A stretch of 62,053 nt of DNA, counting the filler, from Porpidia crustulata (taxonomy: Eukaryota), in the NCBI GenBank assembly GCA_964255105.1. It is 7 parts of 7 records of this genome, joined end to end, with 100 filler letters (N's around TTAATTAATTAA, not from the genome) between each part and the next. Parts side by side here need not be neighbours in the genome. Positions count along the whole stretch, not along the records: positions 53,288 to 62,053 come from CAXUWE010001056.1; 6 more parts are not named here. The stretch is one strand, 5' to 3'. The first letter of the stretch is position 1. Every line of letters begins with the position of its first letter. The position numbers and the translations under genes are program-made. The notes beneath the pieces were generated by a model. That model was not told where the DNA came from. It saw only the letters and a program-made list of their open reading frames with translations, and made no database searches. Of this stretch, positions 53,818 through 58,287 are shown in pieces.

Positions 53818-56245
53818 CTATGGGGAACTCGGGGGTCTTTCAGCGGCGACGAAAGCTGATGCCCCCAAGCCGTCCGGCTCATGCTTCCCCTCGTCCGTTA
53901 TTCCCATCCTGAGTTCTTCGTCTACTTCAGCTTTGCGTTCTGCCTCTTGGAGTCTGATGTGTTTGTTTTCTTGGTATCGGGCCTCGGCCTCAGCTTCGGC
54001 CCGCTGAGCTGCCTCGATGGCTTTGATGATTTCTTCCTGAAACGGGTCTGACGCTGGGGGGTCCAGTAGTCTAGATTTTGGCGACGGGTTAGTTGTTTGA
54101 CGGGCAGAAGACGGGGTCAAGGGCTGGGTGCGCTTGGCGCCCTCATTTGCCTTATTCAGAGCTCGAATCTCGGAGACTGGGCTCCGGACATGACCCCAGT
54201 CATTTAGGACTGGGTTGGTGAGCTGGAAGTCGCGTGAAAACTGGACTAGATCGGGCAGTCGAGGTGGTCCAGTCTGCGGTTGTTCTTGCTTCTTCGGAAT
54301 CGTCGCTAGAAGATTTTCAGCTATTGCTTTCGCCGCAACTTCTTTCCTGTCTGGTAACTGCTCTCTGTGAACTGTGGATGAAAGCCTTGGAGGTAGCGTC
54401 ACTTTTGCCTCGACTTCTTGCTTACGTGGCAACAAGGGCTTTCCACTGTCCTCTGCTGCCTTTTCGATCCTCAAATCCTTGATGTCTAGTCCGCGAAACC
54501 TGATGTGGTCATATACAATGGCAGATGGTGGAACTGTCTCACCAGACCAGCGGTCTTCAGTGCCAAAGGAAACAACCCCCGTAAGAGCAACGGTTGAGCT
54601 TTCCGAATCGATTTCTTCAAGTGTTCCGCAGTAGCTGAGAAACATTAACCCTTGAGAACTGAATGAGAGCGACCAAATGGAATACATACCGCATGTCTCT
54701 GTTGGTGATTAGAGAGATTCGCAAGCCAATGAACTCACCAGACCCGGTTGGTGTAACTTTGGATTTTTGTGACGTCAATGCTGGGGATTTGTCCTCGATA
54801 CTCTTTGTTTCTGGCGCACGACGATATCGCTCTGGCAGCGTTACTGAAGCTACACCCCCTTTGTACCGGGATAATGAGAGGTCAGCGTGCGGTTTGCGGT
54901 ATTGAGTATTCCCTTGAAGAGCAGGACGAGAATACTCAGGCAGCGTCGTCGAAGCTTCTAGCGATTTATGTTTGGTTGGTGAGTAATAGGGGTACGGTAT
55001 GGGGTATTGAGTTGGTATTTCGGTGGCACGACGAGATCGTTCAGGTAGCTTCATCGAAGCTTCTGGCTGCTTGTACTGGGATGATGCGCGATAGGGCGCT
55101 TGCCCTACAGGCTGAATGCGAGAAGTCTCTTGCGATTCCTGTATCTGTGTACTTTGGAGATTGTTGTGGCCACTGCCATGTATGTGAAATTGATCGTGCA
55201 ACGCTGGCACTTCGCTCGGAGGCTCCAGCCAAGTATGTTGCAGTGATTGTTCGGCACTCAATCGATTACTTGGTTCAATGGCCATCATCTTTCGGACAAA
55301 GTCGATTGCTTCGTATCCTATGGACTCAAGGACACCACTCGGAAAAGGCTTCTGACCTTGACAGTATTTCAAGAGGCCACGACCATTAGGAAATGGCACG
55401 GAGGTTGTAAGGAGCCAAGATACTATACAGCCCAAGGACCACATGTCGACGGCGTTGCTATAGCTGAAGATCTCTTCGTCGTCACCTAAAAGGCGCATGA
55501 CCTCAGGCGCGACGTAGTCACCAGACATGCTCGTTCGAAGCATTGTGAGACCTTCTTTGACACGTTTGGAGATGCCGAAATCGCCAATCTTTACCCACCA
55601 ATTCGGAGATTTGGAAACGACAAAGATATTCTACATAGAAAAGAGATAATAAGTCTTCGGCCACCAGAAGCTGAGGTATCAAAAGTCGTACCAACGGTTT
55701 CAGATCCCTATGACTGAAGTTCTGGTCGTGCATTGTCTTTAATCCCTCGAGGATCTGTGTCACAATGACTTTGGTTTCTGATTCAGCTAGTGAAGTCGAT
55801 ACACAGTGCTGTAATGAGCCTAATGAAAGGTATTCCATGGCTATGTAGACTTTTGATGTCGTTTCAAACCATCCTAGGAAGGAAACATACGTAGAGCTAT
55901 CCTGCACAAGTATTAAGCCATGTCAAAACAATATAGGAGAATTACGATTACTCTCGAAAAATAAGCCATTGCAAGTAGCTCTCTCTCATAATCAATCTTC
56001 CTCGACATCTCGTCATATTTGCGAACCTCTTTCACGGCTCTTAGTTCGCCTCCATGTTCCCTTTCTAGCCACACATCCCCAAAGCCTCCCTGACCAATCT
56101 CCTTTACACGAGTCCATTGTGTCGTCTTCTTGGCTTTCCTGATACCTCGGGCTGGATCTGAGTAAATGCGAGTGTGCTCAACGTAGCCGGAGAAGTTCCT
56201 GTATTCCAGTCGGAAATAGTTGACCAGGTCGGAGCTGGTCTCCAT
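53818..56245 (-). CDS. Ser/Thr protein kinase with C-terminal Scd6/Lsm14 Sm-like domain (4 exons)
   Basis: GQGGFG, AVK, RE, HRDLKP|N, DFG, APE and DMWSLG are all intact. Then EFIGLRISLITNRDMR|YCGTLEEIDSESSTVALTGVVSFGTEDR...YDHIRFRGLDIKDL (intron 54635-54689). Confidence 0.88.
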
Positions 56246-56412
56246 GGCCGTCGACTGCCCATTATCAGAGCGAGTAGCAACGTGCTACGAGAAACTTCAT
56301 GGTACACAATGTCTATTTCATAATTCTCGAGGAAATCAAGGCAGATAAAATGCCTACAGACTTGACGGAGATTTAGGCAGGCCGCGCCGCCGCCACAAAG
56401 CTAGAGTATTGC

Positions 56413-56442
56413 GCCTCACGTAGAAACCGCTCTACGTGAGGC
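56413..56442. promoter_or_regulatory. Perfect 12-bp inverted repeat in divergent promoter
   Basis: GCCTCACGTAGA-aaccgc-TCTACGTGAGGC, near the midpoint between ATGs at 56245 and 56653. Confidence 0.55.
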
Positions 56443-56652
56443 TGAGTAGAATCGTAGTCTTGAGTTTTGCCCACCACGCCCGTTCAGATTAGATGAAATG
56501 TCTAGATCAAACACAGCCTTCTGCGCTGTTTCCACAAAATTATAAAAGAGCTTGATAATGGCTGTCGACACGATTTGGGCGTCTCGCCATCTTTACTTGA
56601 ATCTCCAACTGCAATATTCAACATTTGGAAAGGAGGAGCTTGATTCCAGGAC

Positions 56653-58287
56653 ATGGACGGTGCATCGTTTGGGCTCACTATTGCTGCTACCTGTGCCCTT
56701 TGCCTAAAGTTTGTATTGAGTAACTCAAAGGTTTGAAAAGTTGCGCTGATTCAGTGCTTGCGTTGCAGGTGCGGCAAACTTCTTGTCGATAAATATAAAA
56801 CCTTCGTAAATGCGGGGACGATCATCTCGGAATTGATTCTTTGTATCGAAGGAGTCTGGATCAGGCTGGAGATTCAAATTGAGACTCTGCGGAACATTTG
56901 GGACTCTCTCAATGGTCGTCTTCAGGTCTACCAAAATACGGTCCTTCAACATCTTTACATCAAAATCCAAATTGCAATTGCGGAATTGGATGGAATTATT
57001 GGCAAAAATCATGATACTGCGACATCACCATTAGACTTGGGCGGAAAGAAAGGCGCTCTGAAAAGGGGCAAATTCGTGGCACTGGAAGCCTCTCTCCAAA
57101 GGTCCATAACAGAACTCGAACTCTGGCACCGCAGATTCGATCCGTCTTGGTTTTTGATAACTCGTATCCAAGACTTGAATATCGATCGAAAGTTGGCCGA
57201 TTGCAAAACTGACATTTCCAATGACGTATCTTCCCTTATACAAATCAGAAATGTCCTTCAAACTAATGCAGGCAATCTCAAAGATTCGAGGTCGGTTTTC
57301 CTTGAGAGACAGCCTTGGCTGGCATCAAAAAAGTTGATACCATATTCTTCTGCGCATACTGCTTGGGACTCTGCAGACAATGCAGACTTCATCATCGATA
57401 CAACAGACTACCCACGCGCCACTAATATACCTGTTGCTACGGCCCACGTTCGAGACATTGCAAGAATCCTATCAACAGCTAAACCGTCAACATTTGGGCT
57501 TCTCAATTGTAGAGGTGCGACTAAAGTCCTAGATCAACAGAACAAAGTGTTTCAATTTGAGCTCATCTATCATGTTCCACACGGACTAGTCAACCCGACA
57601 AGCCTTCGTCAAAGCCTCGTGATAGAAAAGAAAGTCTCGCTTGACGAGCGCTTTCATATAGCCAAAGCGTTGACAAAGTCTGTCATGTTCATGCATACTT
57701 CGGCTTTCGTCCACAAAAACATACGACCCGAGACAATTATCACTTTTGAAGATCATGACAGTCGCTTAAGGACCCCTTTCCTTGTCGGGTTCGAACGCTT
57801 TCGACCCGCAGCTGCTGGGAGTAATCTTTCTAGTGATGCATATTGGTGGCGAAACCTGTATCGTCATCCTAAACGTCAAGGCATTCTACCAGAGGAACTA
57901 TATTGCATGCAACATGATATCTATAGTCTCGGGGTTTGTCTTCTTGAGATAGGCATATGGACCTCGTTCATCCACCCAGATGCTGAACTTCAATCACCGC
58001 CGCTTCTAGGAAATATCATCGCCATCGAAAGTCAGCTGTCAATGAAGGATCAGGCGCTGGCCGCATTTGAGATCAAAAGAGCTCTCGTAAGTCTAGCGCA
58101 ACTGAAGCTACCCAGCGAGATGGGATTGAATTATACAGAAATTGTCATATCTTGCCTCACTTGTCTGGATCGGGGCGAATCGAATTTGTTTGGCAATGAG
58201 GCGGATCTTCAAGATGATGATGGGATTGTCGTTGCTGTACAGTATATCGAAAAGGTTTTGCTTCGTCTGGAAATCATTAACATATGA
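56653..58287 (+). CDS. HeLo-like N-terminal domain + pseudokinase (MLKL-like architecture)
   Basis: MDGASFGLTIAATCALCLK|CGKLL (intron 56709-56768), helical N-domain. Kinase C-lobe has HKNIRP (no HRD Asp), VGFE (for DFG), LYRHP and HDIYSLGVCLLEIG; no Gly-rich loop. Confidence 0.85.

Follow-up and report, generated by a model that had tools for sequence, protein, structure and literature searches.

Two divergently transcribed genes that may form a kinase-triggered, MLKL-like pair lie at positions 53818 to 58287 of a stretch of Porpidia crustulata DNA (assembly GCA_964255105.1; the whole stretch of 62,053 nucleotides is called the window here). One encodes a Ser/Thr kinase, and the other a protein with a predicted helical N-terminal domain (N-domain) followed by a degenerate kinase domain. 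The DNA at this locus is eukaryotic and its introns are short and bounded by GT..AG. Gene models built from frame-keeping GT..AG introns are frame-consistent, and their coordinates agree exactly with those of a first-pass annotation that had proposed a module resembling vertebrate RIPK3 and MLKL. The kinase gene (53818-56245, minus strand) runs from an ATG at 56245 to a stop codon at 53818-53820 and encodes 753 amino acids on four exons (56245-55952, 55901-55692, 55630-54690 and 54634-53818, stop included); all three introns have GT..AG borders and measure 50, 61 and 55 nt. The MLKL-like gene (56653-58287, plus strand) encodes 524 amino acids on two exons (56653-56708 and 56769-58287, stop included) separated by a 60-nt GT..AG intron at 56709-56768. 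Between the two ATGs lies a spacer of 407 bp (56246-56652), the length first reported, which is presumably a shared promoter.

The minus-strand gene had been described as an intact kinase, and it carries every catalytic motif. A complete protein kinase domain occupies amino acids 44-306, and the Pfam Pkinase model matches exons 1, 2 and 3 (E 0.0031, 3.3e-15 and 2.5e-22). Intact motifs include GQGGFGDV (aa 51-58), RAVK (aa 69-72), HRDLKP (aa 162-167), the catalytic-loop Asn, DFG (aa 185-187), APE (aa 209-211) and DMWSLG. This catalytic core, which includes NIFVVSKSPNWWVKIGDFGISKR, spans 55430-56095 (minus strand) with two introns inside. Relatives were collected by searching with the third exon of the window kinase among longer proteins, and 115 were listed. 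The partner kinases form a single clade that is recognized by an N-terminal extension (..DL[LV]xxF[RK]L..) and by the signature NIFVVxKxPxxWWVKIGDFGISKR, which the window kinase has as WWVKIGDFGISK in common with partner kinases at other loci. No variation is seen at N176, in the WW pair or in the DFG motif (D194) among 38 relatives that were aligned, and residues H169, D171 and K173 of HRDLK are kept in at least 90%.

In the second protein, the pseudokinase domain (57310-58284, plus strand) has HKNIRP (aa 334-339, 57712-57729) where an HRD-type motif would stand and GFE (aa 359-361, 57787-57795) in place of DFG, two substitutions that the first-pass annotation had read correctly. It also contains NLYRHPKRQG (57853-57882, plus strand), MQHDIYSLG and SCLTCLD. 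The Pfam Pkinase match is weak (E 0.004) and falls under the curated cut-off. A database search returned 1,856 proteins at E≤0.001 among 8,000 candidates scored, and the best 120 of these are 39-76% identical to the window protein. Named relatives come from Lecanoromycetes, Eurotiomycetes, Dothideomycetes, Geoglossomycetes and Pezizomycetes. The closest of them among the matches listed is from the lichen fungus Lasallia pustulata (55% identity), and at least two named copies are present in each of Endocarpon, Xylographa trunciseda, Heterodermia and Wilcoxina. Three database records bear the source name 'HET-s/LopB domain protein'. Two copies from metagenome contigs (loci L049 and L077) contain an in-frame stop and may be pseudogenes.

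The dead-kinase features are shared by the whole family. In an alignment of 62 relatives, every sequence has the H, K and P of HKNIRP and the G and F of GFE, and 60 of the 62 also have the E of GFE; WxxxFDPSW, NLYRHPxRQG, MQHDIYSLG and CLTCLD are conserved as well. When a profile of these relatives was compared with 177,635 Protein Data Bank (PDB) sequences, full-length mouse MLKL (4btf_A) ranked first (E 4e-6, 28.9 bits). In the alignment to 4btf_A, HKN pairs with the HRN of MLKL, and GFE falls on GFE without gaps. Against a close relationship to MLKL stands the narrow lead of about 1 bit, as IRAK4 (27.9 bits), BRAF (27.6 bits) and the MLKL pseudokinase entry 4m68 (26.7 bits) follow immediately.

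Within the putative activation loop, Ser370 (57820-57822, plus strand), located 11 residues past the G of GFE, is a candidate phospho-acceptor. A Thr (51) or Ser (11) occupies its column in all 62 relatives, whereas the four preceding and the three following columns are freely variable. At metagenome loci, 45 of 46 distinct instances of the motif have T or S here. An invariant Thr or Ser in the activation loop is what would be expected of a phospho-switch. The loop is modeled with a predicted local distance difference test score (pLDDT) below 50 in the AlphaFold2 model. The Ser370 column lies within the MLKL activation loop, aligned without gaps, and the HMMER alignment places the fungal Thr column on a Ser of the mouse MLKL segment NSISRT. 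This segment corresponds to the S345/S347/T349 phosphosite cluster. In human MLKL, the RIPK3 targets T357 and S358 are likewise in the activation loop, which comprises residues 351-372 (PMC8044208).

The same conserved residues could be read in another way. If the degenerate domain were an atypical active kinase, phosphotransferase or nucleotidyl-transferase that uses His-Lys and NLYRHPxRQG, the invariant H, K, Y, R, H, P, R, Q and G between about aa 334 and 390 would be explained, and this set exceeds the needs of a scaffold. Some proteins once called pseudokinases were later found to be active. However, throughout the family other residues stand in for the Asp of HRD and that of DFG, and both the window protein and the family consensus have Thr at the position of the catalytic-loop Asn (though Asn is kept in some relatives, such as P0066). 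Pfam Pkinase matches remain under the curated cut-off, and MLKL has the same GFE substitution. We consider an enzymatic role very improbable.

The linkage of the two genes recurs well beyond this locus. Metagenome contigs were scanned with the family alignment, giving 80 loci that form 58 clusters at ≥90% nucleotide identity, and the flanks were searched by tblastn with the window kinase domain. Clusters were evaluable if the 5′ end of the MLKL-like gene and at least 2 kb upstream were present, which left 32. A kinase on the opposite (minus) strand lies within 1.5 kb upstream at 21 of the 32 and within 3 kb at 22, and two more of these loci have an upstream kinase on the same strand. By contrast, a kinase is found in the downstream control flank in 2/35 cases. 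With other upstream lengths demanded, the counts are 24/36 (at least 1 kb) and 17/27 (at least 3 kb), and tblastn matches at the 21 linked loci are separated by 462-1444 bp. The count is conservative by one, because the representative kept for the cluster of L008 and L013 was L008, which has no kinase, and not L013. Of 35 upstream minus-strand matches at metagenome loci, 21 have the motif WW.K..DFG..K, 10 have variant signatures, and 4 are cut by the contig end or lack the segment.

Named genomes give the same picture. Nine family members come from assemblies that are also represented in the kinase list, and four of these have a kinase at the adjacent locus tag: Geoglossum M1839_007921/007920, Xylographa MMC17_002454/002453, and Endocarpon GJ744_000695/000694 and GJ744_001725/001724. 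In Fonsecaea (AYL99_08442/08440) the kinase is two tags away, and for the other four of the nine none was found among the matches listed. For pairs in Lasallia, Aspergillus granulosus and Penicillium pancosmium, adjacency is suggested by the equal lengths of the contigs that carry the two genes. The first-pass annotation had set linkage in other genomes in advance as a test by which the proposed pair could fail, and the divergent kinase at 21 of 32 loci together with the four consecutive tag pairs upholds this part of the proposal.

A shared bidirectional promoter or mere chance could place two genes with functionally unrelated products side by side. Such an explanation, like any doubt about an obligate module, draws on the fact that no kinase adjoins the gene at about a third of family loci and that the upstream genes at these orphan loci are unrelated (aldo-keto reductase, GST, JmjC). 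Yet the arrangement is far beyond chance because it is found again on unrelated contigs and in named genomes, with the divergent kinase strongly enriched over the control side, and because the kinases at these loci are one clade with a private signature. Nor is a shared promoter sufficient by itself, because pairs in other orientations (L054, L074, L004 and L026) and a form in which both parts occupy a single chain would not be kept by it. Coincidence or promoter sharing as the whole explanation is thus strongly disfavored, and we give it the slimmest chance of the explanations considered.

The single-chain form is P0174 of Talaromyces pinophilus (902 aa), with a kinase at aa 23-303 and an MLKL-like part at aa 431-902 (34% identity, E 4e-87). 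An internal Met and an exon-1-like helix at about aa 412-431 count against its being a true fusion, because an annotator may have merged two tandem genes at this point; P0174 may be either a natural fusion or such a merger. At L003/L004/L005, L026, L054 and L074 the partner-type kinase is on the same strand, downstream or upstream, and the L054 kinase has a stop codon in the region of the WW codons.

From about 300 bp before the MLKL-like gene onward, contigs L008 and L013 are about 95% identical, but their sequences further upstream are unrelated. The divergent kinase is present in L013, and its place in L008 is taken by 8 kb of low-GC DNA (0.36-0.45); a scan of the 4.4 kb adjoining the gene listed no open reading frame (ORF) of at least 100 aa. 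The difference resembles a presence/absence polymorphism of the partner kinase. A complex prediction for one Endocarpon pair (P0142 aa 1-320 with P0066 aa 196-523) gave a score of 0.00 and a mark of 0.34; it was run without alignments and without controls, and gives no answer either way on binding.

Beyond its catalytic domain, the window kinase has a composite C-terminal part. Translation reveals a low-complexity linker (54742-55180, minus strand) in which a motif of about 35 aa (..EAS.KLPERSRRA..TQY..) occurs in three loosely similar copies, EASMKLPERSRRATEIPTQY, EASTTLPEYSRPALQGNTQY and VASVTLPERYRRAPETKS; no repeats were reported at the DNA level for this linker by Tandem Repeats Finder. 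The linker leads to a complete LSM14/Scd6-type Sm domain (aa 467-540; 54460-54736, minus strand) that is in frame with the kinase, is interrupted by the 55-nt intron at 54635-54689, and had been missed in the first-pass annotation. Exon 4 matches Pfam PF12701 (E 1.8e-17, profile positions 17-74 of 75), and human LSM14A (6f9w_A, E 5.9e-11) as well as Drosophila 2vxe and 2fb7 are found among PDB sequences. Since there is neither a stop codon nor a plausible start between kinase and Sm domain, we read the two as a predicted kinase-LSM14 fusion. No FDF domain is present after the Sm domain among Pfam matches at E≤1 on the last exon, which suggests a captured Sm module rather than a whole Scd6 gene. 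On this sequence evidence the module may be a captured ('integrated') P-body domain. The protein ends with a basic, coiled-coil-like tail (53821-54459, minus strand) that contains the motif LPDLVQFSRDFQL. The tail is weakly similar to those of the two kinases nearest in sequence (E 0.005 and 0.002), and a weak tail motif is all that these relatives have in common with the C-terminal part of the window kinase. It counts against the fusion, which is itself a gene-model prediction, that an LSM14 domain occurs in none of the 115 kinase relatives listed.

Other partner kinases carry other C-terminal domains. At 24 loci, WD40 repeats were found in seven, ANK repeats in three, WW, KA1 and RhoGAP domains in one each, and a further kinase ORF in one; ten have no recognizable C-terminal domain. 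The listed kinase relatives add TPR, formin GBD/FH3, SH3, RRM, caspase, PH, Ras and ubiquitin-like domains. The C-terminal domain of the kinase is most likely its sensing or recruiting part.

It is conceivable that signals pass in the opposite direction, with the pseudokinase acting as a guard or decoy for pathogen kinases or effectors and the C-terminal domain of the kinase as the output arm. Linkage by itself has no direction, caspase, RhoGAP and Ras domains show that enzymes and adaptors are among the partner C-termini, and the tandem-kinase resistance proteins of plants pair pseudokinase decoys with active kinases (PMC11297308). Nevertheless, it is the kinase C-terminus that varies, while the pseudokinase protein is uniform, and the variable member of such a pair is usually the sensor. 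In addition, the invariant activation-loop Thr/Ser sits in the pseudokinase, and an N-terminal bundle with a hydrophobic helix is effector-like. These observations make a reversed flow improbable.

The annotation had also likened the kinase to RIPK3, and this part does not stand. The solved structures were searched with P0122, a Lasallia relative that is the closest full-length partner kinase. The best matches belong to the CAMK group, with Rad53 (E 2.9e-33), STK17A/B, CaMKI and DAPK closest, and among the 60 solved matches listed almost all are of this group and none is a RIPK. The partner kinase is therefore CAMK-like and no relative of RIPK, and any likeness to RIPK3 would be one of analogy and not of homology. 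The proposed independence from amyloid signaling fared better. A simple regular-expression scan for the RHIM-like tetrad [IV]Q[IVLC]G found none in either window protein, and neither NACHT nor NB-ARC turned up when the 58 window ORFs with a length of 130 aa or more were scanned with Pfam; both results fit an amyloid-independent system.

The N-terminal part of the MLKL-like protein begins with the hydrophobic helix encoded by exon 1, MDGASFGLTIAATCALCLK (56653-56708, plus strand), which is present as first described. Its family consensus, M[DE]Pxxxx[LF]AVxxxxDLC[IL]K, is seen in eukaryote-annotated relatives, and 45 of 56 metagenome loci encode such a peptide in the 300 bp that precede the match, with no intron-less copy seen among the 56. 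The rest of the N-domain (56769-57309, plus strand) comprises a predicted four-helix bundle, the invariant motif WxxxFDPSWF (57136-57153, plus strand) and two brace-like helices. An AlphaFold2 model of the full-length protein from the 62-row alignment (pLDDT 85, predicted template modeling score 0.78) has a helical N-domain followed by a kinase fold. For the Lasallia relative P0014, a model of aa 1-198 that includes the exon-1 helix (31 rows, pLDDT 80.3) has long bundle helices at residues 3-29, 36-65, 68-96 and 116-143, and the window model agrees; the exon-1 peptide forms the start of the first of these. Brace-like helices at 156-164 and 171-187, between bundle and kinase fold, are modeled with lower confidence (pLDDT 60-69).

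The order of parts in these models, bundle, brace-like helices and GFE pseudokinase, is that of MLKL, so that the MLKL architecture proposed at the outset is borne out by prediction. In a Foldseek search with the whole model, kinases match at E of about 1e-6, and full-length mouse MLKL (4btf) appears at rank 17, aligned over 506 columns as against about 330-400 for the other rows listed.

The proposal of a HeLo-like N-domain finds mixed support. By protein-language-model features, the nearest named clusters to P0014 aa 1-198 are HeLo PF14479 (0.95, 187/256 shared features), and those nearest to the window N-domain are HeLo as well (0.94, 171/256). HeLo clusters lead among those named (0.89-0.95), followed by HeLo-like and SesA (0.85-0.87); such a resemblance is a lead and not a proof of homology. 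VIA comparisons of the N-domain with known structures gave Z 9.1 for the barley MLA13 coiled-coil (CC) domain (9fyc_A), 8.9 for the potato Rx CC domain (4m70), 7.9-8.7 for the NRG1.1 CC-R domain (7l7v), 8.3 for AtMLKL2 (6lba_A; root-mean-square deviation (rmsd) 3.8, 114 residues) and 8.0 for the N-terminal domain of MLKL (6ux8_A; rmsd 3.2, 114 residues), although 7.9-9.1 is a range that the tool itself calls uninformative for helical bundles. A search of 1.84 billion representatives with the N-domain profile yielded 692 proteins at E≤0.001, and the best 150 are members or fragments of the same family. From a word-index search with this profile came three matches, none with a Pfam HeLo annotation.

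Several results weigh against membership of the HeLo group. Pfam models for HeLo (PF14479), HeLo-like (PF17111) and SesA (PF17107) have no match at E≤1 in the window protein, none at E≤0.01 in the 62 relatives, and none at E≤10 in 49 N-domains, which were scanned without exon 1 and for which 25 families were listed at E≤10. The best match of the N-domain profile to PDB sequences is an unrelated protein (E 0.34), and Foldseek returned nothing for the N-domain model at E≤0.001. In VIA, the MLKL and CC domains are outscored by unrelated helical bundles (Z 10-12), among them IncA, Cbl and designed proteins. The HeLo domain of HET-s is absent from the Foldseek and VIA rows listed for the N-domain. 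On balance, the N-domain is likely a divergent member of the HeLo/four-helix-bundle (4HB) superfamily.

These uncertainties give room to the main rival explanation, a non-lethal kinase-pseudokinase signaling pair. The pseudokinase would then be an allosteric partner or scaffold, as in STRAD-LKB1 or KSR-RAF, with an N-domain that serves oligomerization or localization and is harmless to membranes. Conserved linkage and dead motifs fit any obligate pair of this kind, the missing Pfam HeLo match and the generic four-helix-bundle fold matches are as it would predict, and RhoGAP, KA1, WW, SH3, formin GBD and LSM14 are ordinary signaling or RNA-granule modules. It accounts less well for the lead of HeLo over HeLo-like and SesA among protein-language-model clusters, for the first rank of MLKL among solved sequence relatives of the pseudokinase, and for the conserved hydrophobic helix of exon 1. 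Moreover, a multi-copy family and the difference in kinase content between L008 and L013 are typical of immune-type gene families. We regard a harmless signaling pair as rather unlikely, although it is the alternative to be taken most seriously.

The reading that we favor is that the Porpidia pair is a copy of a conserved module of filamentous ascomycetes, composed of a sensor-kinase and an MLKL-like executioner, and we assign it a probability of roughly 0.55. It is favored because a constant MLKL-like protein is accompanied by a linked, intact kinase with a variable C-terminus and carries an invariant activation-loop Thr/Ser, and also because several genomes hold multiple copies and the kinase is present or absent between contigs that are about 95% identical. 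A signal received through the C-terminal domain would activate the kinase, which would then phosphorylate the invariant Thr/Ser in the activation loop of its pseudokinase neighbor (Ser370 in the window protein). The pseudokinase would undergo a conformational switch that releases the helical bundle, and the released bundle would oligomerize and attack the membrane. The outcome would likely be regulated cell death, as in nonself or virus defense. Binding, phosphorylation, membrane attack, death and the sensor role of the C-terminal domain are all steps that we infer.

Comparison with the vertebrate RIPK3-MLKL system brings out likenesses and differences. The predicted executioner shares with MLKL the order of bundle, brace-like helices and GFE pseudokinase without a catalytic Asp, MLKL narrowly leads the solved sequences matched by the family profile, and a dedicated active kinase is its partner in both cases. 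The N-domain model fits the N-terminal domain of MLKL (Z 8.0) no better than it fits unrelated helical bundles, so that its descent from a common ancestor with the MLKL 4HB is conjectural. Unlike RIPK3, the fungal kinase is CAMK-like and not of the RIPK/TKL type, has no RHIM-like tetrad, and bears a variable C-terminal domain of its own. The fungal genes are also physically linked and divergently transcribed, whereas we know of no physical linkage of RIPK3 and MLKL genes. A Thr or Ser is conserved where RIPK3 phosphorylates MLKL (PMC8044208). Of the RIPK3-MLKL-like module first proposed, the predicted architecture and the linkage stand, and the invariant Thr/Ser fits it; HeLo membership by Pfam, fold matches better than those to unrelated bundles and homology of the kinase to RIPK are not supported.

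Plant MLKLs (AtMLKL1-3 and wheat Pm13) also combine a HeLo-like bundle, a brace and a kinase-like domain, and AtMLKL2 aligns with the fungal N-domain model at Z 8.3. We know of no conserved neighboring activator kinase gene for them. Plant MLKLs function in immunity (10.1101/681015, PMC10951266).

Among fungal systems, HET-S/NWD2 and HELLP/PNT1 are likewise ascomycete two-gene clusters in which a variable sensor is encoded beside a membrane-targeting helical executioner (PMC12881547). They resemble the MLKL-like pair in the hydrophobic N-terminal helix, and HeLo, HeLo-like and SesA are the protein-language-model clusters nearest to the N-domain. They differ in that the neighbor here is a kinase and the scanned window ORFs are free of NACHT and NB-ARC, that the C-terminus of the MLKL-like protein is a pseudokinase with no prion-forming motif, that the proposed trigger is phosphorylation and not amyloid templating, and that the Pfam HeLo and HeLo-like models fail on the N-domain. 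In fungal gasdermin clusters, the neighboring proteases are fused to WD40, TPR or ANK repeats (PMC12881547). There too an executioner, in that case a pore-forming one, is encoded beside its activating enzyme, and partner kinases carry the same classes of repeat, although the activator proposed here is a kinase and not a protease, and the executioner is MLKL-like and not gasdermin-like. The logic of the module would thus be analogous to that of RIPK3-MLKL and of the gasdermin-protease clusters.

Some HELL domains occur in proteins with kinase or pseudokinase domains and have been called reminiscent of MLKL (PMC12881547, section 20). The MLKL-like family probably belongs to this set. A linked activator kinase, an invariant Thr/Ser and variable partner domains are not described in the consulted parts of PMC12881547 or in papers found by full-text searches of the open literature, and a linked activator kinase was not seen in the consulted parts of PMC9815663 and PMC10197012.

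Other features were noted in the window. An ORF with a RelA/SpoT-type domain (PF04607, E 4.2e-14) lies at 4709-5413 (plus strand) of this fungal window; domains of this type are also found at the N-termini of fungal NLRs. A trichodiene-synthase-like terpene cyclase (PF06330 on two exons, E 1.3e-93 and 8.1e-69) stands beside a cytochrome P450, at 21521-22781 (minus strand) and 24438-25373 (plus strand), and the two may form a small gene cluster for a sesquiterpene. At 48053-49567 (minus strand), an ORF of 505 aa contains a PD-(D/E)XK nuclease domain (PF20516, E 3.6e-66) and lies about 4 kb from the kinase/MLKL-like pair along the joined stretch. Paired 44-base N runs recur every ~8.88 kb (8792-8891, 17682-17781, 26564-26663, 35445-35544, 44317-44416 and 53188-53287) and look like masking or scaffolding and not like biology; one pair lies about 530 bp past the kinase stop codon.

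A broader version of the favored reading, which we hold tentatively and at clearly less than even odds, is that filamentous ascomycetes possess a widespread, amyloid-free, necroptosis-like layer built from sensor-kinases and linked MLKL-like, membrane-permeabilizing executioners. Each sensor would be a CAMK-like kinase joined to WD40, ANK or TPR repeats or to a domain captured from the host; on detecting nonself or perturbation, it would phosphorylate the one invariant threonine in the activation loop of its executioner. The LSM14/Scd6 domain in the window would be an integrated decoy that reports interference with P-bodies or mRNA decay, for example by a mycovirus.

Necroptosis is usually defined by the phosphorylation of MLKL by RIPK3, and to our knowledge the amyloid route, in which an NLR templates HET-S or HELLP, is the one route worked out in fungi. 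A 2025 review lists the extent to which necroptosis and fungal necroptosis-like death are conserved as an open question and urges a broader exploration of fungal HeLo/4HB proteins (PMC12881547, section 18). A conserved, linked pair of kinase and MLKL-like genes provides concrete material for this question, together with a single invariant candidate phosphosite and a natural series of partner kinases that differ in their sensor-like domains, so that a kinase-triggered, necroptosis-like death switch in fungi becomes directly testable. The pair would also extend the rule exemplified by gasdermins and proteases, that an executioner and its activating enzyme are encoded side by side. If the broader version is true, control of a helical-bundle executioner by a kinase acting on a pseudokinase would be ancient, or would have arisen repeatedly in eukaryotes, and would not be a vertebrate invention.

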